A stretch of DNA of 64,000 nucleotides, taken from the NCBI GenBank assembly GCA_964512925.1, contig CAZEKH010000001.1, positions 39,445-103,444 of the forward strand. Reading direction: 5' to 3'. Position 1 is the stretch's first letter; each line of letters starts with the position of its first letter. Of this stretch, positions 4,472 to 44,735 are shown in pieces. This DNA is from an uncultured Candidatus Saccharibacteria bacterium (lineage in GTDB: Bacteria; Patescibacteriota; Doudnabacteria; UBA920). Made by a program: the position numbers and the translations under genes. The notes under the pieces are model-generated. The model saw nothing but the letters and a program-made list of their open reading frames with translations. It did not search any database and was not told the origin of the DNA.

Positions 4472-4909
4472 TTATTTAGTCTGATTATATCTTGGATCAA
4501 AATCTACCATCCATTCAATTCCATATTTGTCTCTAAACATACCAAAGTACGAACCCCAAGGACTGTCGCCTAAAGGAAATTCAACAGACCCGCTGGCTGA
4601 AAGTCCGTTGAACAATCTCTCGGCTTCTTCTTTACTTTCTGCGCTTATAGAAATTTTACTTCTGTTTTCGTTTTCGCTTACTTTTCCCATACTTTCTGGG
4701 ATGTCATTGCCCATTAAGATGTTTTTGCCGATAGGCAAAGCAATGAGCATTATTTTATTTGCCTCGTTTTCTGCCACAGGGAATTCGGAACTGGCAAGGT
4801 CTTTGAGGCGCATAACTTTTACAAACTCCCCACCAAAAACTGATTTGTAAAAGTTAAATGCTTCTTCAGCATTCCCGTTGAAATTTATATGCGGATTGAT
4901 TGTTGCCAT
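4472..4909 (-). CDS. VOC-family / PhnB-like protein (3-demethylubiquinone-9 3-methyltransferase domain fold)
   Basis: N-terminus MATINPHINFNGNAEEAFNFYKSVFGGEF is characteristic of the PhnB-like glyoxalase-fold family. Confidence 0.6.
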   Translation of the reverse strand: MATINPHINFNGNAEEAFNFYKSVFGGEFVKVMRLKDLASSEFPVAENEANKIMLIALPIGKNILMGNDIPESMGKVSENENRSKISISAESKEEAERLFNGLSASGSVEFPLGDSPWGSYFGMFRDKYGIEWMVDFDPRYNQTK

Positions 4910-4953
4910 AGTTTTTATTGTTAATGTTAATAATTTTTACTTCATCTAAATTC

Positions 4954-5044
4954 TGGCGGAGAGGGAGGGATTCGAACCCTCGAGCCCCTTGCGGAGCAAC
5001 CGGTTTTCGAGACCAGCGCACTAGACCACTATGCGACCTCTCCA
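4954..5044 (-). tRNA. tRNA-Ser (anticodon CGA), long variable arm
   Basis: Reverse complement GGAGAGGTCGCATAGTGGTCTAGTGCGCTGGTCTCGAAAACCGG...GGGTTCGAATCCCTCCCTCTCCGCCA. Anticodon loop CTCGAAA. Long extra arm. CCA encoded. Confidence 0.8.
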
Positions 5045-5244
5045 TACTTTTATTTACAAATAGATTCCCGCTTTCGCGGGAATGACAGCAAGTAAATATA
5101 TTATAAACAAAAACCCGATGCTTGTCAGCTGTTTTTCAAAACAAAAATTTAAAAAGATTCCTGTCAACTATGACACAATTGTGTTACGTTTGACAGGAAG
5201 CTTTTTATAAAAAATTATTTAGTCTGCCACATTAAAAACAAAAG

Positions 5245-5277
5245 AAGGGCGCCCTCTCATGCAAGAGGGTGCCCTTT
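5245..5277 (-). terminator. Rho-independent terminator for the murF-alr-ddl operon and the zinc-ribbon gene
   Basis: AAGGGCGCCCTC-loop-GAGGGTGCCCTT hairpin, with a T-run on the minus strand following it. Confidence 0.6.
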
Positions 5278-5293
5278 CTTAATTTAAATTAAG

Positions 5294-5548
5294 TTATTTC
5301 TTTTTCCATCTTGGGGCAAAGCCGGCCATAAACGCAAACAGGTGGGCTTTCAGCTTGCTTTCCCCGCGTGCGACTATGGCATCTACCATAGCTTTTTTAA
5401 AACCTTTCAGGTCATCGCCCTGGTAACAGAGCTCACCTCCAGAATAACAGTACGAACAATATTTTTCATTTTCCCTATTTGCGCCTTTTGGATCTTTTTT
5501 AAAAGGCATAAGGCAACTTTGGCAATTTCCTTCCAATGTATATTGCAT
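5294..5548 (-). CDS. Zinc-ribbon domain small protein
   Basis: 84 aa with CxxC...CxxC pairs (CQSC, CSYC). Last gene of the murF operon. Confidence 0.45.
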   Translation of the reverse strand: MQYTLEGNCQSCLMPFKKDPKGANRENEKYCSYCYSGGELCYQGDDLKGFKKAMVDAIVARGESKLKAHLFAFMAGFAPRWKKK

Positions 5549-5574
5549 GGTTATTGGTTATAAATTATTAGTTA

Positions 5575-6765
5575 TTATTTTTTCAGCTTGCTTCCCTTAC
5601 TTCCTCCCAAATTTTTCAGCACGCTGGATTCAAAGGTGTAGTTTATGCTTCTTTTGAGTTTATATTCTTCTTCCGCAAAAGCTATAAGCTTTTTTAAAAG
5701 CTCTGGCAGCTCAAGGCCCGAAGCTTTCCATAAGTGATGGTAAAGCGTTCCCGGAAGCGGGTTTATTTCGTTGGCAAAAAACTCTTTAGTTACTTTGTTG
5801 TACAAAAAGTCCACGCGCGCTATACCGCTGCATTCAACCGCTTTGTAAACCTCTTTTGCTGCTTCTTGGATTTTTTTTGTTATATCTTCCGGAAGACGCG
5901 CGGGTATGACCAGGCTATTTTGGGCTTTACCGGTTTGCCCTCCCCCGTCAGTAATGTATTTGTCTTCAAAATCAAACAGGTCTTTGGAAAATACCGACTC
6001 TTGCAAAAGCGAAGCAGTCAGCGTTTCGTTACCTATCACGCAGCAAGTTACGTCCATAAGGTTTTCCACCACCTCCTCTACAATAACTTTGTTGTCATAA
6101 AAAAAGGCCACTTCGAGTTTCTGCTCTAGCTCTTTCTCATCCTTGGCTTTTCCAATGCCGATGGACGAGCCAAGATGGACCGGCTTAACCATCGCAGGAA
6201 AATTTACTGATTTACTGATTCTCTGATTTACTGATTCTCTATTCTTCTCCCAATCTGATTTACTGAAAAACACATACTTCGTCGTAGGGATACCGGCTTT
6301 TTCAACCATGATCTTTGTCAGAGCTTTGTCCATAGAAATAGCGGACGCAGGAACGCCGCAACCAACATACGGAATTCCAAACATTTCAAAAAGCCCTTGC
6401 AAAGTGCCGTCTTCCCCATATGTACCGTGCATAGCCGGAAAAGCCAGATCTATAACAGTTTCTTTACCAAATAACCCTTTTTTCTTAAACACCATCTTCC
6501 CCACTGACTCCTGCATATCTAAGTAGTATTCGCAGAATTCATTTTGGGCTCTCTCCCCAAGTTTGGGGAGAGCTGGAGAGAGGTTGTTAGTTAAAAATTT
6601 CAAATCCCCCAACTCCTCGCCCAACATCCATTGGCCTTGCTTGGTTATGTAAACCGGTACAACTTTATGATTTAAAGCTTTCAGCCCGTTGATCACCAAA
6701 TTTCCGGTAATGATGGAAATATCATGCTCCACCGAGCCTGAGCCAAAAAATACTCCGATTGTCAT
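5575..6765 (-). CDS. ddl: D-alanine--D-alanine ligase
   Basis: MTIGVFFGSGSVEHDISIITG N-terminus, ATP-grasp layout, VKPVHLGSSIGIGKA motif. Contains an internal GC-rich palindrome and a period-8 tandem repeat. Confidence 0.9.
   Translation of the reverse strand: MTIGVFFGSGSVEHDISIITGNLVINGLKALNHKVVPVYITKQGQWMLGEELGDLKFLTNNLSPALPKLGERAQNEFCEYYLDMQESVGKMVFKKKGLFGKETVIDLAFPAMHGTYGEDGTLQGLFEMFGIPYVGCGVPASAISMDKALTKIMVEKAGIPTTKYVFFSKSDWEKNRESVNQRISKSVNFPAMVKPVHLGSSIGIGKAKDEKELEQKLEVAFFYDNKVIVEEVVENLMDVTCCVIGNETLTASLLQESVFSKDLFDFEDKYITDGGGQTGKAQNSLVIPARLPEDITKKIQEAAKEVYKAVECSGIARVDFLYNKVTKEFFANEINPLPGTLYHHLWKASGLELPELLKKLIAFAEEEYKLKRSINYTFESSVLKNLGGSKGSKLKK
6203..6262. repeat. Period-8 tandem repeat (TTTACTGA / TTCTCTGA units) inside ddl
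   Basis: tttactgatttactgattctctgatttactgattctct...gatttactga. Encodes SVNQRISKSVN. Confidence 0.6.
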
Positions 6766-7991: not shown

Positions 7992-8062
7992 TATGGGTGG
8001 GCTTTAAATCTTTAAATTCTCGCAAAGTGAGATCACGCTCTGCGTGACATTAAATCTTAAAT

Positions 8063-9544
<1,482 letters not shown>

Positions 9545-9994: not shown

Positions 9995-10795
9995 TTACAA
10001 AGGAGAGGATAAAAATTCCTTTAAAGTCTTTACAAACTCCTCTGGTTGGTCTAAGAAACTAAAATGCCCTGAGTTCTGAAGAATTTTGAATTTTGAATTT
10101 TGAATTAAGGAATGCATTTTTTCACCAAACTCAACCGGGGTGTCTTTGTCGTTCTCACCCCAAACCAACAGTGTAGGAATTTTTATTTGTTTTAAGTCCT
10201 CGGTTAAATCTTCCTGTGTTACATTTATAAAAGTTTCCCGAAGTTCCGGCGTTGCCAAATAGTCTTCTGCTCCAATCGTCTTATAAATACTCTTCCGTAA
10301 ACCCTGCATAAATTTTGGTTTAAAAACAGGTCTTGCTATTTTTGCAACAAAACCATAAACACTTTTTTTTGATCCACTCACAGCAAATCCCGCTGCATCT
10401 ACCAAAACCAGTTTTGTCAGCCTTCCGCGTAATTCCGCGTTACCTTCTGCATAAGTCCGCGTTGTTTTAATAGCCACTCTCCCCCCAAAACTATGCCCCA
10501 CCAACACAACATTTTTAAGTTCTAACTTTTCTAAAAAACCTTTTACTAATTCTGCATAATCCCCCACTGTCCAAGAAGTCTTTGGCGCAGGCGAACCACC
10601 AAATCCAGGAAGGTCAACAGTGTAACAACTGATTTGCTGATTGACTGATGCACTGATTAACACACTAGCTATCCGAGCCCACACTTCTTTATTGCTCCTC
10701 CAGCCATGCAAAAACACAACAGACACTTCACTATCCCCTGTTCCAAATTGTTTATATGATAATAAATTTTTTTCCACCACAATTTGCTGATTCAT
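9995..10795 (-). CDS. Alpha/beta hydrolase
   Basis: VVLVGHSFGGRVA nucleophile elbow, FLHGW oxyanion region. 266 aa. Contains in-frame period-8 and period-7 DNA repeats. Confidence 0.7.
   Translation of the reverse strand: MNQQIVVEKNLLSYKQFGTGDSEVSVVFLHGWRSNKEVWARIASVLISASVNQQISCYTVDLPGFGGSPAPKTSWTVGDYAELVKGFLEKLELKNVVLVGHSFGGRVAIKTTRTYAEGNAELRGRLTKLVLVDAAGFAVSGSKKSVYGFVAKIARPVFKPKFMQGLRKSIYKTIGAEDYLATPELRETFINVTQEDLTEDLKQIKIPTLLVWGENDKDTPVEFGEKMHSLIQNSKFKILQNSGHFSFLDQPEEFVKTLKEFLSSPL
10629..10658. repeat. Period-8 CTGATT-based repeat inside the alpha/beta hydrolase gene
   Basis: ctgatttgctgattgactgatgcactgatt. Encodes SASVNQQIS. Confidence 0.5.
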
Positions 10796-21350: not shown

Positions 21351-21507
21351 TGTCATCCCGGAATTTTTAAGGGCAGTTAAAAATATCCAGCCTGCCTGAA
21401 TGATTCAGTCAGGCGGGGATCCAGGGGTTAATCTTATATTCTATGTTTAAATATATAATCCTGGATCCCGGCTCTCTCCGCCTGCTGGCGGATCGGCCGG
21501 GATGACA
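21351..21507. repeat. Family-B composite palindromic element (MITE-like) with 11-bp terminal inverted repeats TGTCATCCCGG / CCGGGATGACA
   Basis: Nested inverted repeats: GGGGATCCAGGGG versus CCTGGATCCCGG, and GCCTGCCTGAATGATTCAGTCAGGCGG. Related copies at 31635-31712, 35257-35318, 44169-44198. Confidence 0.55.
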
Positions 21508-29282: not shown

Positions 29283-29339
29283 GGGCGATTAGCTCAGCTG
29301 GTTAGAGCGTCCCGATGCACATCGGGAAGGCCAAAGGTT
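29283..29339 (+). pseudogene. 5' tRNA fragment: first 27 nt identical to tRNA-Val, Cys-type anticodon arm (GCA), truncated in the T-stem
   Basis: GGGCGATTAGCTCAGCTGGTTAGAGCG-TCCCGATGCACATCGGGA-AGGCCAAAGGTT, then TATATATG (no T-loop or acceptor 3' strand). Confidence 0.5.
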
Positions 29340-29344
29340 TATAT

Positions 29345-29617
29345 ATGTTTTACGTATATATATTACAAAGCTTAAAAAATAACCGCTATTATATCGGATC
29401 AACTAATAATGCAGAAAGGAGATTAGCTGAACACAACGCTGGAATAAACATTTCTACAAAACCATACAGACCGTGGAAGATAGTTTTTTGTCAGTCTTTC
29501 GAAAGTAAAGATACAGCCCATAAAGCTGAATTAAAGTTAAAAAAATATAAAAGCAAATTAATTTTAGAACAAGTAATTAGGGATAAATATATAAGGGCGA
29601 TTAGCTCAGCTGGTTAG
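29345..29617 (+). CDS. GIY-YIG nuclease family protein (YhbQ/UPF0213-like)
   Basis: MFYVYILQSLKNNRYYIGSTNNAERRLAEHNAG is a canonical GIY-YIG core. AAAGG RBS. The 3' end with its stop codon lies inside the first 25 nt of tRNA-Val. The track ORF starts at 29315, within the tRNA fragment. Confidence 0.75.
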   Translation: MFYVYILQSLKNNRYYIGSTNNAERRLAEHNAGINISTKPYRPWKIVFCQSFESKDTAHKAELKLKKYKSKLILEQVIRDKYIRAISSAG

Positions 29618-29671
29618 AGCGACTCGTTTACACCGAGTAGGCCAAAGGTTCGAATCCTTTATCGCCCACCA
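29595..29671 (+). tRNA. tRNA-Val (anticodon TAC)
   Basis: GGGCGATTAGCTCAGCTGGTTAGAGCGACTCGTTTACACCGAGTAGGCCAAAGGTTCGAATCCTTTATCGCCCACCA. Confidence 0.85.
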
Positions 29672-30710: not shown

Positions 30711-31451
30711 TTGATTCTAAGAATGAAAGCTCTTTTTGCCATCAGGTCTGTCCTGGCTAAAATTGATTTAGTCAGCGCAATTGCCCTGCTGATAGTTGTT
30801 CCGACCATTTACCCGGAACTGGCTTTCGCAGCTGAATTGTCAAAGACCGCTCAGGCTGAAACCGCCATAATTTTTGAAATCAAAAACCCCTCAGTTCTTT
30901 TACAAAAAAAGCCAACATCAAATTCCCCGATAGAACAGATTGCGGAAACTGTTGAACTTGCAAGCATTGAAGATATACAAAATTCAGATCCGTTAGTTGT
31001 AAAACTAACCGATTATTTAAACAAACATAATTCCCCGCTTGCAGAATACGCGCCGGAAATCGTCAAACAACCCCAATGGCAGAGATCTCTAGCTATTTCC
31101 TGGGTTGAGAGCAATTTCGGCAAACGTTGTTATACCAACAACTGTAGCGGCATCGGCGTAGCTCCCGGTCATCCTTTATGGAGATCTTACGCGACTAAAT
31201 TGGACTGGTTTAAAGATATGTGCCAGCTGATGGAAAAACCGATGTACAAAGTAAAATACACCACCTTTGAACAAATGCGCGGCATTTATGTTTACCCTGG
31301 AAGCAGCTCTTGGGTAAACGGAGCAAAGAAGAAGTATGCTGAGCTGATGGAAATAACTACTCAGGCTGAACAAGAAAAGCTTGCGGCTGTTGAAGTTAAA
31401 ACCCACAACGACAATCTGCACACCTTTCCGGAGCTGGCTATAGCCAGATAA
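30711..31451 (+). CDS. Hypothetical secreted protein (signal peptide, Cys-containing C-terminal domain)
   Basis: N-terminal hydrophobic signal-like segment LAKIDLVSAIALLIVVPTIYPELAFA. No confident family. True start may be the internal ATG (MKALFAI). Confidence 0.45.
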   Translation: MILRMKALFAIRSVLAKIDLVSAIALLIVVPTIYPELAFAAELSKTAQAETAIIFEIKNPSVLLQKKPTSNSPIEQIAETVELASIEDIQNSDPLVVKLTDYLNKHNSPLAEYAPEIVKQPQWQRSLAISWVESNFGKRCYTNNCSGIGVAPGHPLWRSYATKLDWFKDMCQLMEKPMYKVKYTTFEQMRGIYVYPGSSSWVNGAKKKYAELMEITTQAEQEKLAAVEVKTHNDNLHTFPELAIAR

Positions 31452-31457
31452 AACTTT

Positions 31458-31481
31458 AAACCCCCGCCAAAGCGGGGGTTT
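31458..31481 (+). terminator. Terminator AAACCCCCGCC-AA-AGCGGGGGTTT
   Basis: Perfect 10-bp GC stem right after the stop codon. Confidence 0.6.
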
Positions 31482-31526
31482 AAAGTTGCCAAACACCGAA
31501 ATTTTGTTTAAAATTATATGGTTATT

Positions 31527-31601
31527 GGCGCGATGGTGAAGCAGTAACACTGCGGTCTGCAAAACCGCCACGCGTGGGTGCAAATCCCACTCGCGCCTCC
31601 A
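31527..31601 (+). tRNA. tRNA-Cys (anticodon GCA)
   Basis: GGCGCGATGGTGAAGCAGTAACACTGCGGTCTGCAAAACCGCCACGCGTGGGTGCAAATCCCACTCGCGCCTCCA. Discriminator U73. Confidence 0.85.
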
Positions 31602-31628
31602 ATAAATAAGAGTCTCAACGAGGTTTAA

Positions 31629-31732
31629 GGTCTGTCATCCCTTCGGGAGATCCCCCGTAAGGGGGACAAAACCGCCACGCGTGGGTGCCATCCCTCCGGG
31701 AGATGTAAACACAAATCCCACTCGCGCCTCCA
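31629..31732 (+). pseudogene. Partial tRNA-Cys 3' duplicate interrupted by two family-B-related hairpin insertions
   Basis: GGTCTG [TCATCCCTTCGGGAGATCCCCCGTAAGGGGGAC] AAAACCGCCACGCGTGGGTGC [CATCCCTCCGGGAGATGTAAACAC] AAATCCCACTCGCGCCTCCA. Outside the brackets it is identical to nt 33-75 of the intact tRNA-Cys. Confidence 0.55.
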
Positions 31733-31807
31733 CTGCTTCGTCCGCCTAGGGCGGACTACGCAGTGCAAGCAAAAAAATCTTTAACATTATAAAAACATTA
31801 CATACCT

Positions 31808-31894
31808 GCCCGGGTGGCGGAACTGGCATACGCTACTGACTTAAGATCAGTCGCCCTTACGGGATTGAGGGTTCAACTCCCTCCCCGGGCACCA
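31808..31894 (+). tRNA. tRNA-Leu (anticodon TAA)
   Basis: GCCCGGGTGGCGGAACTGGCATACGCTACTGACTTAAGATCAGT + long variable arm + GAGGGTTCAACTCCCTCCCCGGGCACCA. Confidence 0.85.
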
Positions 31895-32164
31895 TTTAGT
31901 TATCAACATTTGACAGGGAAATTATTGGGTGGTAAATTATTTTTACTGATTAAATTTTTGAATTGAAACAAAGTCACAGATTTTCAATTTCTTACAATTC
32001 TAAAAAGTCAACCCAATGGCTTAGTTTGTTGTAAACGGATTCAGATTTGAATTACGTTTTTTTTATTACCTAAAGCCTTGACAAAAATATAAAAAAATAG
32101 TATAGTATGCGGTTACAACTTTTTTAAGCATATTACTTTAATTCTTCAACTTTTGTTGTAAACT

Positions 32165-33550
32165 ATGACAACCAAATCCGCTTCCAAACATAAAAACGGT
32201 TTTAAAAAATTCTGGCGCCTTGGACTGGAAGACTTTAACACAGGCAATTTTACCATTGGCCCGGATGGGGAACTGATTGTAAGGGAAGGCAACTTCCAAT
32301 ACAACATTTTTGATATTGTAAAAAAATACGGCACATCCACGGAAATTGTGTTTCCTACCATCATAGAAAACCGTGTGAGGGATTTGATTGAAACGTTCAA
32401 TGCTTATATCAAAGTTTTAAGCTACAAAGGAAAGTTTTTTTACCACTACGCGATGAAAGTCAACCAGAACAAGGAGTTTGTTCTGCCGGCCGTGGCAGAG
32501 GGGGCAAATCTGGATGTGGCTTCAGCCAATGAATTGTATTTGGTAAAAAAAATGATTGAGCAGGACAAGTTTAACGCTAAAATCCGCGTCATTTGCAACG
32601 GACCCAAAACTCCCAAATATATGGAGCTGATTGAAGAACTAAAAAGCAAAGGACTGATAGTAATCCCAATCATAGAAGACCACGTGGAGCTGGAACGGAT
32701 GCTTAAGTTTAAAGGCGAAGTCGGCATACGAGTTAACTTAAATGTCAAAGTAGACAGTCATTGGGACAAACGCTATAACCGCTACGGTTTTACCGAGTCA
32801 GAACTTTTGTCTTTGGGAAAAATCCGAAATCTGTCCGTCCTGCATTACCACATCTCCAGCCAAATAGAAAAAACCGAAGGCTTTGTTGCTCCTTTAAAAC
32901 GAGCTTTAGACCTGTACGCCAAACTCAGAGAAAAAAATCCGGGGCTTGATACTTTAGACTTAGGCGGGGGAGCGGCGGTGCCTTATGAAAAAAAGAAGCC
33001 GATATATTCGGGAAAAAATTTAATTCAAAACATAGTTAAAACCGCCAAAAACCACTGCGACAAACTTGGAGTAAAACATCCTGATCTGATAGTGGAATGG
33101 GGCAGATACGTGGCAGCCCCGGCCCAGATCACCATCTATAAAATTTTGGCGGAAAAAACCGTAGACAACAAAGGCAAAAACAAATGGTATGTCATAGACG
33201 GGAGTTTTATGAACGACCTGATAGACACTTGGGCGATCCACCAAAAATGGCACGTTACTCCAGTAAACTATATGAATGCCAAAAAGCTGGAAAAAGTCTG
33301 GCTGGCCGGCTCCTCCTGCGACTCTGACGACAAATACACTGCCGGCGGCAGCTATATCCTTTTACCCAAGCTCTCAGACTGCGACGAACTCTATATCGCG
33401 CTTTACGACACAGGCGCATACCAGGATTCCCTGGCTTCCCACCACTGCCTGCTCTCGAGCCCAGCAAAACTCATAGCGCAAAATGGAGAAATCAAAGTAG
33501 CCAGAAGAAGAGAGCAACCGGAAGAAGTTGGCAAACAATTTGGTTGGTGA
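32165..33550 (+). CDS. PLP-dependent decarboxylase, Orn/DAP/Arg decarboxylase family 2 (SpeA-like arginine decarboxylase)
   Basis: The N-terminal YNIFDIVKKYGTSTEIVFPTIIENRVRDL resembles SpeA. The PLP lysine lies in the context HYAMKVNQN. GGGAAVPY glycine-rich loop. Confidence 0.7.
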   Translation: MTTKSASKHKNGFKKFWRLGLEDFNTGNFTIGPDGELIVREGNFQYNIFDIVKKYGTSTEIVFPTIIENRVRDLIETFNAYIKVLSYKGKFFYHYAMKVNQNKEFVLPAVAEGANLDVASANELYLVKKMIEQDKFNAKIRVICNGPKTPKYMELIEELKSKGLIVIPIIEDHVELERMLKFKGEVGIRVNLNVKVDSHWDKRYNRYGFTESELLSLGKIRNLSVLHYHISSQIEKTEGFVAPLKRALDLYAKLREKNPGLDTLDLGGGAAVPYEKKKPIYSGKNLIQNIVKTAKNHCDKLGVKHPDLIVEWGRYVAAPAQITIYKILAEKTVDNKGKNKWYVIDGSFMNDLIDTWAIHQKWHVTPVNYMNAKKLEKVWLAGSSCDSDDKYTAGGSYILLPKLSDCDELYIALYDTGAYQDSLASHHCLLSSPAKLIAQNGEIKVARRREQPEEVGKQFGW

Positions 33551-35256: not shown

Positions 35257-35318
35257 TGTCATCCCGGCCTTGCTTGCCCGCCGTAGCCTTGGCGAAGGTG
35301 GAAGCCGGGATCCGGGGT
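35257..35318. repeat. Family-B element (TGTCATCCCGGCC ... GGAAGCCGGGATCCGGGG) in the rpsA 5' leader
   Basis: Shares the GTCATCCCGG / CCGGGATCC arms with 21351-21507. Confidence 0.5.
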
Positions 35319-35580
35319 AAATAAAAACAACGAATAATTTAATTATCGTTGAATGTTAGTTAAAATCTTTTGCATTGGGGTTAATGATTAAAAGCGCCTG
35401 TCTTTAGCTTATTTGTGGTTAATTGTTAAAAAGTTATTATCTCGGCGCTAGTTCAAATAAGCCTATATATTATACTTAATTTTTATAAAAATGCAAGCCC
35501 CAAAACCCCTTTCTTTTTTCCCTAAAAAGCCTTATAATTACTACAGAACTTTTATAAATTTAGCTACCGATAACTACTGA

Positions 35581-43982: not shown

Positions 43983-44735
43983 ATGCTTTACGTTGTTGCA
44001 ACACCAATTGGAAATTTGGGGGATATAACCCTCCGCGCAATCGAGGTTTTAAAGTCTTGCGATTTTGTGATTGCGGAAAACCCAGGGTACTCACGGAGGC
44101 TTTTAGAATATATAGATGGGTTACCATTAAATTCCAATATTATAAAAACGCTGACTGAGGATATTTACCCTGGATCCCGGATCGAGTCCGGGATGACAGC
44201 TAAAATTAGCCGCAAAGAAGTTTGTCAATTTGCGGAACATAACGAACAACAGGTAGTCAAAGAACTTTCCAGAAGGCTGATAAAAGAAACCGCCTGCCTT
44301 ATAACTGACGCCGGGACTCCGGGCGTTTCTGACCCAGGCTTTAGGCTGGTAAGAGAGTGCGTTGCGCAAGGTGTTGAAGTATTACCTATCCCAGGAGCCA
44401 ATGCCGCCGTTGCCGCGCTTTCTGCAAGTGGACTTCCAACTGACAAATTTATGTTTTTAGGTTTCCTTCAAAAAACAGCGGCTAAAACCGTGTCCGCCCT
44501 ACAGTCTGCAGAAAGCGCGGAAGCCACGGCGATTTTCTATGAATCCCCGGAAAGAATTATAAAAACCCTAAGCTACATCTCCAACGCTTTTCCAAACAGC
44601 CGGGTGGTTGTGGCCAGGGAACTTACCAAGCTCCACGAAGAATTTTTACGCGGAAACCCGGACGAGGTCATCCAGATGCTTAAAGAAAAGCCTTCAATAA
44701 AAGGCGAGCTGACCGTATTAATTTCATTTAAATAA
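43983..44735 (+). CDS. rsmI: 16S rRNA (cytidine1402-2'-O)-methyltransferase RsmI with an internal approximately 30-aa insertion
   Basis: MLYVVATPIGNLGDITLRAIEVL and ITDAGTPGVSDPG match RsmI. The insertion spans the family-B palindrome at 44169-44198. Confidence 0.85.
   Translation: MLYVVATPIGNLGDITLRAIEVLKSCDFVIAENPGYSRRLLEYIDGLPLNSNIIKTLTEDIYPGSRIESGMTAKISRKEVCQFAEHNEQQVVKELSRRLIKETACLITDAGTPGVSDPGFRLVRECVAQGVEVLPIPGANAAVAALSASGLPTDKFMFLGFLQKTAAKTVSALQSAESAEATAIFYESPERIIKTLSYISNAFPNSRVVVARELTKLHEEFLRGNPDEVIQMLKEKPSIKGELTVLISFK
44169..44198. repeat. Family-B palindrome CCTGGATCCCGGATCGAGTCCGGGATGACA inside the rsmI coding sequence, in frame
   Basis: Encodes PGSRIESGMT. Arms are identical to the terminal repeats of the 21351-21507 element. 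Confidence 0.55.

Follow-up and report, generated by a model that had tools for sequence, protein, structure and literature searches.

A 64-kb stretch of a Patescibacteria (Doudnabacteria-like) chromosome, referred to below as the window, carries an intact tRNA-Cys gene followed by a partial 3' copy of the same gene, and this copy is interrupted by two short palindromic inserts. Comparison with related loci led us to conclude that the region at 31602-31770 is probably a relic of the right-hand junction of a small, selfish cassette, which colonizes tRNA-Cys genes in the ultra-small Patescibacteria. In its relatives, the cassette combines a duplicated or split tRNA-Cys gene with an open reading frame (ORF) for a small GIY-YIG nuclease and a double-hairpin module, which we call M and which corresponds to the first insert in the window. 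The cassette origin of the window locus is deduced from junction homology, namely the left edge of the copy at about nucleotide (nt) 28 of the tRNA and M at canonical position 34/35, and not from direct observation. The features of the locus are listed below; a slash in a motif such as TG/CA marks the point of insertion.

31486-31514, plus strand: promoter-like site TTGCCA-17-TAAAAT, 13 nt 5' of tRNA-Cys (consensus scan).
31527-31601, plus strand: intact tRNA-Cys(GCA) with encoded CCA and T loop TGCAAAT (ARAGORN; Rfam RF00005, 58 bits).
31602-31628, plus strand: spacer of 27 nt between intact tRNA-Cys and fragment, with no likeness to the spacers of other loci.
31629-31634, plus strand: GGTCTG, linear nt 28-33 of tRNA-Cys (3' part of the 5' strand of the anticodon stem, with C32-U33-G34).
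31635-31666, plus strand: insert 1, a module M of 32 nt between G34 and C35 (covariance model; same-site homologues).
31667-31688, plus strand: CAAAACCGCCACGCGTGGGTGC, linear nt 34-55 of tRNA-Cys (C35 to the start of the T loop), 22/22 identical.
31689-31712, plus strand: insert 2, a half module of 24 nt in the T loop at TG/CA, its edge ambiguous by one C.
31713-31732, plus strand: AAATCCCACTCGCGCCTCCA, linear nt 56-75 of tRNA-Cys (rest of the T arm, 3' strand of the acceptor stem and CCA), 20/20 identical.
31733-31770, plus strand: trailer hairpin CTGC-TTCG-TCCGCC-TAG-GGCGGA-CTAC-GCAG-TGCAAGC (pattern CTKCTTCG-variable hairpin-CTACGMAGTGCAAGC).
31808-31894, plus strand: tRNA-Leu(TAA), the conserved downstream partner of tRNA-Cys (ARAGORN, Rfam).

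The duplicate comprises nt 28-75 of tRNA-Cys in three exact blocks (6 + 22 + 20 nt), in which 48 of 48 bases are identical to the gene. An earlier note, made from the letters of this DNA, had described an exact repeat with inserts of 33 and 24 nt; the repeat is real and exact, as are the presence of two inserts and the size of the second, but the repeat starts at nt 28 rather than nt 33 and the first insert is 32 nt long. Insert 1 lies between bases 1 and 2 of the anticodon (canonical 34/35) and consists of two hairpins in tandem, TC(A)T-CCC-TTC-GGG-AGA and TC-CCCC-GTAA-GGGG-GA. Insert 2, at canonical 55/56 or 56/57, is a single hairpin ((C)CAT-CCC-TCC-GGG-AGA) with 8 further nt (TGTAAACA); its hairpin is identical to hairpin 1 of insert 1 at 15 of 16 positions, and it is a second, half-decayed copy derived from insert 1. 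The motif CATCCCTYCGGGAGAT is present at both inserts and has no other exact match in the window, while four window matches at three or fewer mismatches compare with 0.36 expected from shuffles. Thus, the view that the inserts share a motif and are small palindromic elements of one family was borne out. Their proposed likeness to the "family-B" GTCATCCCGG elements proved weak, however, amounting to the common GTCATCCC and GGGATC, and the best such element scored only 11.3 bits (E 0.46) with covariance model R1 (see below). A Logan assembly contig of SRR14271332 has the same sequence base for base and may come from the same sample.

The fragment is without tRNA function. Neither ARAGORN nor Rfam, the latter even at E ≤ 10 (31400-31950), called it as a tRNA. 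Only nt 28-75 are present, the 27 nt upstream are unrelated, and the 5' acceptor strand and D arm are missing; because no 5' half stands in front of it, the fragment cannot be a tRNA gene. No evidence of a present-day function for the fragment was found. A consensus scan detected no promoter-like or terminator-like site within 31602-31807, and the fragment is therefore probably part of a Cys-Leu precursor. The predicted promoter at 31486-31514 would probably drive this Cys-Leu transcript, including the pseudo-fragment, which would then be thrown away during tRNA processing. As for folding, the 169-nt region is more stable than its shuffles (z = -3.4), and the trailer hairpin (31733-31770) has z-scores of -2.5 as RNA and -2.75 as DNA.

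Insert 1 has same-site homologues in L036 and in L082-L098 (L numbers denote the loci compared). In L036, a near-identical M (TCATGCCTACGGCAGATCCCCCGTAGGGGGA) stands after G34 of a tRNA-Cys 5' fragment and is followed by a small ORF and an intact tRNA-Cys. A metagenome scan with the pattern GGTCTGTCAT-N8-14-AGATC-N10-17-CAAAACC returned 17 contigs, all of them (17/17) in a tRNA-Cys context. About 20 independent contigs of Patescibacteria have M at exactly G34/C35 of a tRNA-Cys fragment, and its stems show compensatory changes. The module is 30-32 nt long and has the architecture of two tandem hairpins, TC(A)T-N3-loop-N3-AGA and TC-N4-loop-N4-GA. Among 13 distinct copies of M, 98.5% of cells were paired in this structure; double-sided compensatory changes occurred at five pairs (19 cells), the number of one-sided or G-U changes was zero, and none of 500 shuffles reached the observed covariation score. 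Shifting the register reduced pairing to about 40-50%. A covariance model (R1) built from 11 copies of M, with the window left out, recognized insert 1 at 35.7 bits (E 2.7e-7).

We also considered other readings of these hairpins. A UNCG tetraloop in hairpin 1 was rejected because the compensatory changes set its register as a triloop, and a small ribozyme (hammerhead or similar) folded as a three-way junction was rejected because the core motifs misfit by inspection and Rfam gave no match. Indeed, Rfam detected nothing over the fragment, either in the whole window at the gathering threshold or in 31400-31950 at E ≤ 10. The idea that the 3' arm of the last hairpin serves as the ribosome-binding site of the nuclease ORF, so that the Shine-Dalgarno sequence is sequestered, was inconsistent between copies and was dropped. 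The minimum free energy (MFE) structure of the window's M alone is not the conserved two-hairpin fold but a different long hairpin, which is impossible for the other copies. Many M loops are triloops of GNA or complementary sequence and are closed by a C-G pair. Triloops of this type with a C-G closing pair are unusually stable as DNA minihairpins, which is suggestive only.

The link between M and a nuclease emerged from the related loci. Among 14 distinct M-bearing tRNA-Cys loci, 10 hold an ORF of about 80 amino acids (aa) that consists of the GIY-YIG catalytic domain only (PF01541); as for the other four, L090 and L095 end too near the junction to tell, the window has no such ORF, and in L091 none was noticed. 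At most loci, the ORF begins 8-18 nt past M; its end lies at or within nt 1 of the intact tRNA-Cys, except that L082 and L098 have the ORF after the intact tRNA. Complete cassettes (L092, L087, L088, L082/L098, and L107) begin with a tRNA-Cys 5' fragment (from about nt -5 to 41-50) that has M between G34 and C35, and continue with the ORF, the intact tRNA-Cys, a short spacer, GGTCTG-M-3' fragment (nt ~28-76), and tRNA-Leu. Their duplicated parts flank only about 300-450 nt, comprising the GIY-YIG ORF and the tRNA. Directly 5' of M, a stub of 6-9 nt like the GGTCTG of the window is found at every right-hand junction. Most loci have the left junction only, and the window and L091 have the right junction only. 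Every contig long enough to show it carries exactly one intact tRNA-Cys.

Two complete cassettes indicate how the tRNA gene is treated. In each of L092 and L087, the two outer fragments (5' and 3') pair as one tRNA-Cys with matching acceptor stems (in L092 the anticodon stem matches too), and the inner gene is a different allele; therefore, the resident gene was split and a working copy supplied. The intact copy sustains the host, and the fragments are dead. Recombination between the duplicated 5' halves would delete the left M and the ORF and yield the layout of the window, recombination between the 3' halves would delete the right junction, and recombination between the two M copies would leave a contiguous gene interrupted by M. 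A contiguous 5' half-M-3' half gene was absent among about 30 M junctions, which fits an M that cannot be removed from RNA. At the window locus, recombination between the 5' halves most probably removed the nuclease gene and left junction, unless these were never co-converted.

The closest solved structures to the ORF are those of the UPF0213 proteins EF2693 and BH0048 and of SLX1 structure-specific endonucleases (PDB matches). NCBIfam gave a sub-threshold match only, to a group I intron endonuclease and confined to the GIY motif. A homologue search yielded 108 clusters; where the source name states a taxon, all are Patescibacteria or candidate phyla radiation (CPR) except for one "bacterium", and the annotations go no further than "GIY-YIG nuclease family protein" or "endonuclease". 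As a reverse test, six distinct homologue loci were picked by the length of the contig alone. In all six (6/6), the ORF abuts an intact tRNA (five Cys and one Asn) and has a hairpin-bearing pseudo 5' fragment upstream. We infer that the protein is a mobilizing or homing nuclease. In published work, the prokaryotic UPF0213/SLX1 branch counts as the minimal form of GIY-YIG, with no established function (PMC1564403). Contigs shorter than 3 kb carry most of the nuclease homologues, which suggests that the cassettes break metagenome assemblies.

The same locus was next compared among close relatives. The ornithine/arginine decarboxylase gene of the window (32165-33550) has counterparts with 73-92% identity in 80 Patescibacteria contigs from metagenome-assembled genomes (MAGs), and the order 246-aa gene, tRNA-Cys, tRNA-Leu, and decarboxylase is kept in 27 related contigs, in which the Cys-Leu spacer ranges from 6 to 714 nt. 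The block of the window was missing from the orthologous locus in 27/27 relatives. Among the 28 syntenic loci only the window and L036 carry M, and nine other loci have a tRNA-Cys identical to that of L036 and no cassette. The cassette is thus sporadically present among close relatives with conserved flanks, as is a free-standing GIY-YIG homing cassette. The trailer also speaks to the history of the locus. The motif CTTCTTCG-variable hairpin-CTACGAAGTGCAAGC directly follows the CCA of tRNA-Cys in L009, L010, L030, L032, and L036, whereas in the window it comes after the CCA of the fragment and not that of the intact gene. Because this native trailer follows the fragment, the fragment sits at the ancestral 3' end of the gene.

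Three further observations concern this spacer. In L009, L032, and L036, a second, partly complementary block (CGAAGAAGTGYCCTACGTAGC...) lies 55-150 nt beyond the trailer. In L025, a 223-aa LAGLIDADG_3 ORF (4944-5615) occupies the Cys-Leu spacer, and a homologous stretch is found in L027. These represent another sort of homing-type gene in this spacer, which is a hot spot for such genes. Relative to L002 and L003, whose decarboxylase is most similar to that of the window, identity is 79% for tRNA-Cys and 87-93% for tRNA-Leu; the contrast suggested replacement of the tRNA allele, which is suggestive only and was not used as evidence.

M itself behaves as a DNA-level insertion element and not as an RNA motif, because it occurs in both orientations and several contexts, shows presence/absence polymorphism, and is most alike within one genome. 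With regard to orientation, the copies of L105 and L107 at G34/C35 are the reverse complement (30/31) of those of L083 and L036. The target TG/CA is palindromic, the ends of M (TC...GA) are symmetric, and the center of the TG/CA palindrome is the insertion point at the anticodon site and at two T-loop sites. Nearly every site has TG at the left or CA at the right, and no target duplication was observed. With regard to polymorphism, an M of 31 nt sits cleanly between GGTT and CAATT in the L082 T loop but is missing from the closely related 3' fragment of L098, and removal of M from the T loop of L107 restores the tRNA sequence exactly. Full or partial modules occupy the fragment's T loop in L082, L088, and L107, and D-loop copies lie between GTAGC and CAAG in L096, L103, and L105 and between GTAG and CAAAG in L099. 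Two copies in L096 are intergenic. M also occurs in a coding sequence: L032 has an M-like 30-mer (4602-4631) in frame after the ATG of a homospermidine-synthase-like gene, which is missing in the 88%-identical orthologue of L037. M thus has two hallmarks of a miniature palindromic insertion element: it is a short non-coding palindrome with several copies and contexts, and it shows clean-edged polymorphism. The two CCC/GGG hairpins of the window and the four copies of L082 exemplify the likeness within one genome, which suggests that M is copied inside a genome. No RAYT or transposase gene was seen near any M copy, although no dedicated search was made and 64 kb of this genome was covered.

A possible solo copy of M also exists in the window:

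8018-8047, plus strand: possible solo M, TC-TCGC-AAA-GTGA-GA + TC-ACGC-TCT-GCGT-GA (model R1, 17.4 bits, E 0.013, a weak match).

It has flanks AAAT and CATT and lies in the intergenic spacer of two minus-strand genes, one alanine-racemase-like and the other Mur-ligase-like. Further M-like 30-mers in frame directly after an ATG were noted in L015 (4322-4348), L029 (3378-3408), and L042 (5442-5471); the in-frame M-like 30-mers consist of two TC-N4-N3-N4-GA units and add about 10 residues (MS.GGSASGG).

Several points weigh against the cassette reading of the window locus. The tRNA-Cys locus of the window has no nuclease ORF, and the 48/48 identity of gene and fragment fits local duplication or gene conversion equally well. 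The working tRNA-Cys of every nuclease-bearing genome retains an intact TGCA in its anticodon loop, and simple cutting of duplex DNA at TG/CA would therefore be self-destructive. We know of no nuclease activity or target for this ORF family. The T-loop copy of L107 lies between TTC and GATT and thus has neither TG nor CA adjacent. Moreover, the pattern scan is biased to canonical M in tRNA-Cys, and templated repair in hairpins (quasipalindrome correction) could partly yield the covariation of M without selection.

The first two of these points would also be explained if the 3' part of tRNA-Cys had been duplicated locally in tandem, without a nuclease cassette, and the duplicate had been hit twice by an autonomous M that persists only in non-functional tRNA loops. 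Such an M would account for the copies away from tRNAs and nucleases (position 8018 of the window, the two intergenic copies of L096, and the coding copy of L032) and for the insertion polymorphism between L082 and L098. However, the right junctions of L092, L087, L088, L082, L098, and L107 have the same left edge (about nt 28) and the same position of M (34/35), a nuclease is present at 10/14 M-bearing loci, and it is unlikely that endpoints at the same nucleotides arose independently in many lineages. We therefore regard local duplication as rather unlikely. The suggestion that the duplicate was later invaded by palindromic elements as a purely secondary event was not supported, since M at 34/35 is a constant companion of the cassettes.

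A 3' tRNA duplication that starts in the anticodon arm is the classic signature of an integrated island, and the anticodon and T loops, where the inserts lie, are known crossover sublocations. The fragment could accordingly be an attachment-site (attL/attR) remnant of a tyrosine- or serine-integrase island that had entered the 3' half of tRNA-Cys and was later deleted. We found this very improbable. None of nine ORFs tested (~26.0-36.3 kb) has an integrase or recombinase domain, the repeat copies are only 27 nt apart, and related loci flank about 300-450 nt with the GIY-YIG ORF and tRNA and have 5' fragments as frequently as 3' fragments. A serine recombinase occurs near one locus only (L101), on the other strand and beyond the tRNAs. 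Thus, the earlier note gained support in taking the block for a 3' tRNA duplicate without function that a mobile element had left behind, but not in seeing an att site of the integrase type: no integrase was found in the ORFs tested, and the related loci instead hold a cassette that spans up to about 450 nt and includes a GIY-YIG ORF.

The same note had offered a structured, tRNA-like non-coding RNA as an alternative, and a processing or regulatory element in the Cys-Leu precursor would be of a similar kind. The stability of the 169-nt region (z = -3.4), the covarying hairpins, and probable co-transcription with the tRNAs are in favor of such an RNA. Its absence from the orthologous locus of 27 relatives, the check that the note had proposed for presence or absence of the duplicate, counts against an RNA conserved at this locus, and Rfam gave no match at E ≤ 10. 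In addition, M occurs in both orientations at one site and is present in L082 and absent in L098, no G-U pair is found among the covarying positions, and the MFE structure of the window's M differs from the conserved fold. The motif family recurs elsewhere, an outcome that the note had named as favoring an insertion footprint. A functional structured RNA is therefore highly unlikely. Finally, it is scarcely credible that a second tRNA-Cys gene, split or spliced, exists here with the inserts as its introns or intervening sequences: anticodon loops of Patescibacteria tRNAs do hold group I introns (PMC13011429) and insert 1 lies inside the anticodon, but no 5' half precedes the fragment, none of about 30 M junctions is contiguous, Rfam gave no group I or II match (window at the gathering threshold; 31400-31950 at E ≤ 10), 32 nt is far too short for a ribozyme, and the insertion follows G and not U.

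We compared the cassette and M with known systems. Integrative elements that target tRNA genes restore the gene by carrying a copy of its end. Like these elements, the cassette keeps an essential tRNA intact through partial duplication and leaves a partial copy; unlike them, it has no integrase, is shorter than 0.5 kb, and has both 5' and 3' fragments as well as hairpin insertions. Repetitive extragenic palindromic (REP) sequences, bacterial interspersed mosaic elements (BIMEs), and Rickettsia palindromic elements are miniature palindromes, and the Rickettsia ones insert in frame in genes and in RNA genes. M resembles them in that it is short, non-coding, palindromic, multicopy, polymorphic, and tolerated in frame (L032) and in RNA-gene sequence in reduced genomes. 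However, M is only 30-32 nt long (two 15-nt hairpins), lies by TG or CA without target duplication, and is tied to a GIY-YIG ORF instead of a RAYT/TnpA-type enzyme, none of which was seen. IS200/IS605 elements and their miniature inverted-repeat transposable elements (MITEs) have hairpin ends, no target-site duplication, and a short specific target, and the IS200/IS605 type inserts strand-specifically, 3' of a fixed tetranucleotide. M shares the hairpin ends, the lack of target-site duplication, and the short target with IS200/IS605, but no cassette has a Y1 (HUH) transposase ORF, M is found in both orientations at G34/C35, and it is at least 10 times smaller.

Among nuclease-linked precedents, the phage T4 SegB gene encodes a free-standing GIY-YIG homing endonuclease and lies beside tRNA genes (PMC2330249, PMC13096335). 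In both cases a GIY-YIG ORF is wedged in a tRNA region, is sporadic in close relatives, and travels with flanking tRNA sequence. SegB is multi-domain, sequence-tolerant, and phage-borne, and its target is not split, whereas the cassette encodes a bare catalytic domain nearest to UPF0213/SLX1, resides on a cellular chromosome, and has a duplicated or split tRNA and double-hairpin junctions. The group I tRNA introns of Patescibacteria (PMC13011429) are in the same phylum and interrupt the same part of tRNA genes; unlike these introns, M has no ribozyme and no contiguous exons, lies at 34/35 after G, and has a fragment as its host copy. The paper on these introns mentions neither Cys, GIY-YIG, nor duplicates (PMC13011429), and our literature search found no account of GIY-YIG with split or duplicated tRNA genes in Patescibacteria. 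The closest precedents all lack the combination of a bare SLX1-like GIY-YIG ORF with a tRNA that is duplicated or split and a double-hairpin module of 30 nt, and no description of it was found in the literature searched.

The window also contains a second tRNA locus with a nuclease ORF, 2 kb upstream of tRNA-Cys:

29283-29339, plus strand: pseudo 5' fragment of tRNA-Val, nt 1 to ~55.
29345-29617, plus strand: ORF of the GIY-YIG catalytic domain only (Pfam PF01541, 7e-18; PDB matches UPF0213 and SLX1).

In the fragment, a TC...GA hairpin (TCCCGAT-GCAC-ATCGGGA, 29310-29327) takes the place of the anticodon arm. The longest version of the ORF starts at 29315, the start conserved in the family (MFYVYIL) is at 29345, and the stop codon lies inside the intact tRNA-Val (29595-29671). 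A phmmer search ties this ORF to those of L022, L035, and L036. The stretch 29283-29671 looks like a live cassette, similar in general kind to the one from which the tRNA-Cys relic would have come.

Other repeats and tRNA fragments were noted. Intergenic hairpins of the form GTCATCCCGG...CCGGGATCC(A/G)GGG with variable interiors occur at 21352-21425, 21456-21506, 35258-35325, and 44165-44197, and also in L016; they share only end motifs with M, and the pair near 21.4 kb is inverted. An 8-nt tandem unit (ATTTACTG / ATTTTCTG) forms short arrays at 6202-6252, 8158-8224, and 10624-10666. In other loci, partial tRNA duplicates stand by intact tRNAs, namely in L013 (~16044, tRNA-Ile), L047 (~5778, tRNA-Thr), L048 (~9779, tRNA-Pro), L022 (~2278, tRNA-Gly), L025 (~3153, tRNA-Gly), and L106 (tRNA-Asn), of which L022 and L106 hold a GIY-YIG ORF. 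These duplicates bear different GC-rich hairpins, such as GGCCCGCCCCG(Y)CACC inverted repeats that bracket the intact tRNA and a CCTGCCTGCCGGCAGGCAGG palindrome.

A bolder proposal, which we hold to be doubtful, is that M and the SLX1/UPF0213-like GIY-YIG protein of about 80 aa constitute a new class of minimal transposable element, in which a nuclease free of a DNA-binding domain would recognize extruded hairpin loops or branched DNA at tRNA genes, cut by TG or CA, and mobilize M with or without its own gene. If this is true, solo M copies, including the two in the window, would be footprints of the element, and the widespread minimal prokaryotic SLX1-like GIY-YIG proteins would gain their first function. 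Should the nuclease act on TG/CA in structured DNA, it would represent a new specificity class with possible use as a tool. The cassettes also point to a testable activity for these uncharacterized minimal SLX1-like nucleases.

In Patescibacteria MAGs, the cassette explains some of the tRNA pseudo-fragments and some of the assembly breaks near tRNA genes, and M provides a recognizable 30-nt marker of such events. With exactly one intact copy in each sufficiently long contig, tRNA-Cys is probably essential and single-copy in these genomes of roughly 1 Mb. The relic and its relatives illustrate a way for a selfish element to take over such a gene while the host survives, namely by duplicating or replacing the gene and leaving hairpin-marked fragments behind.

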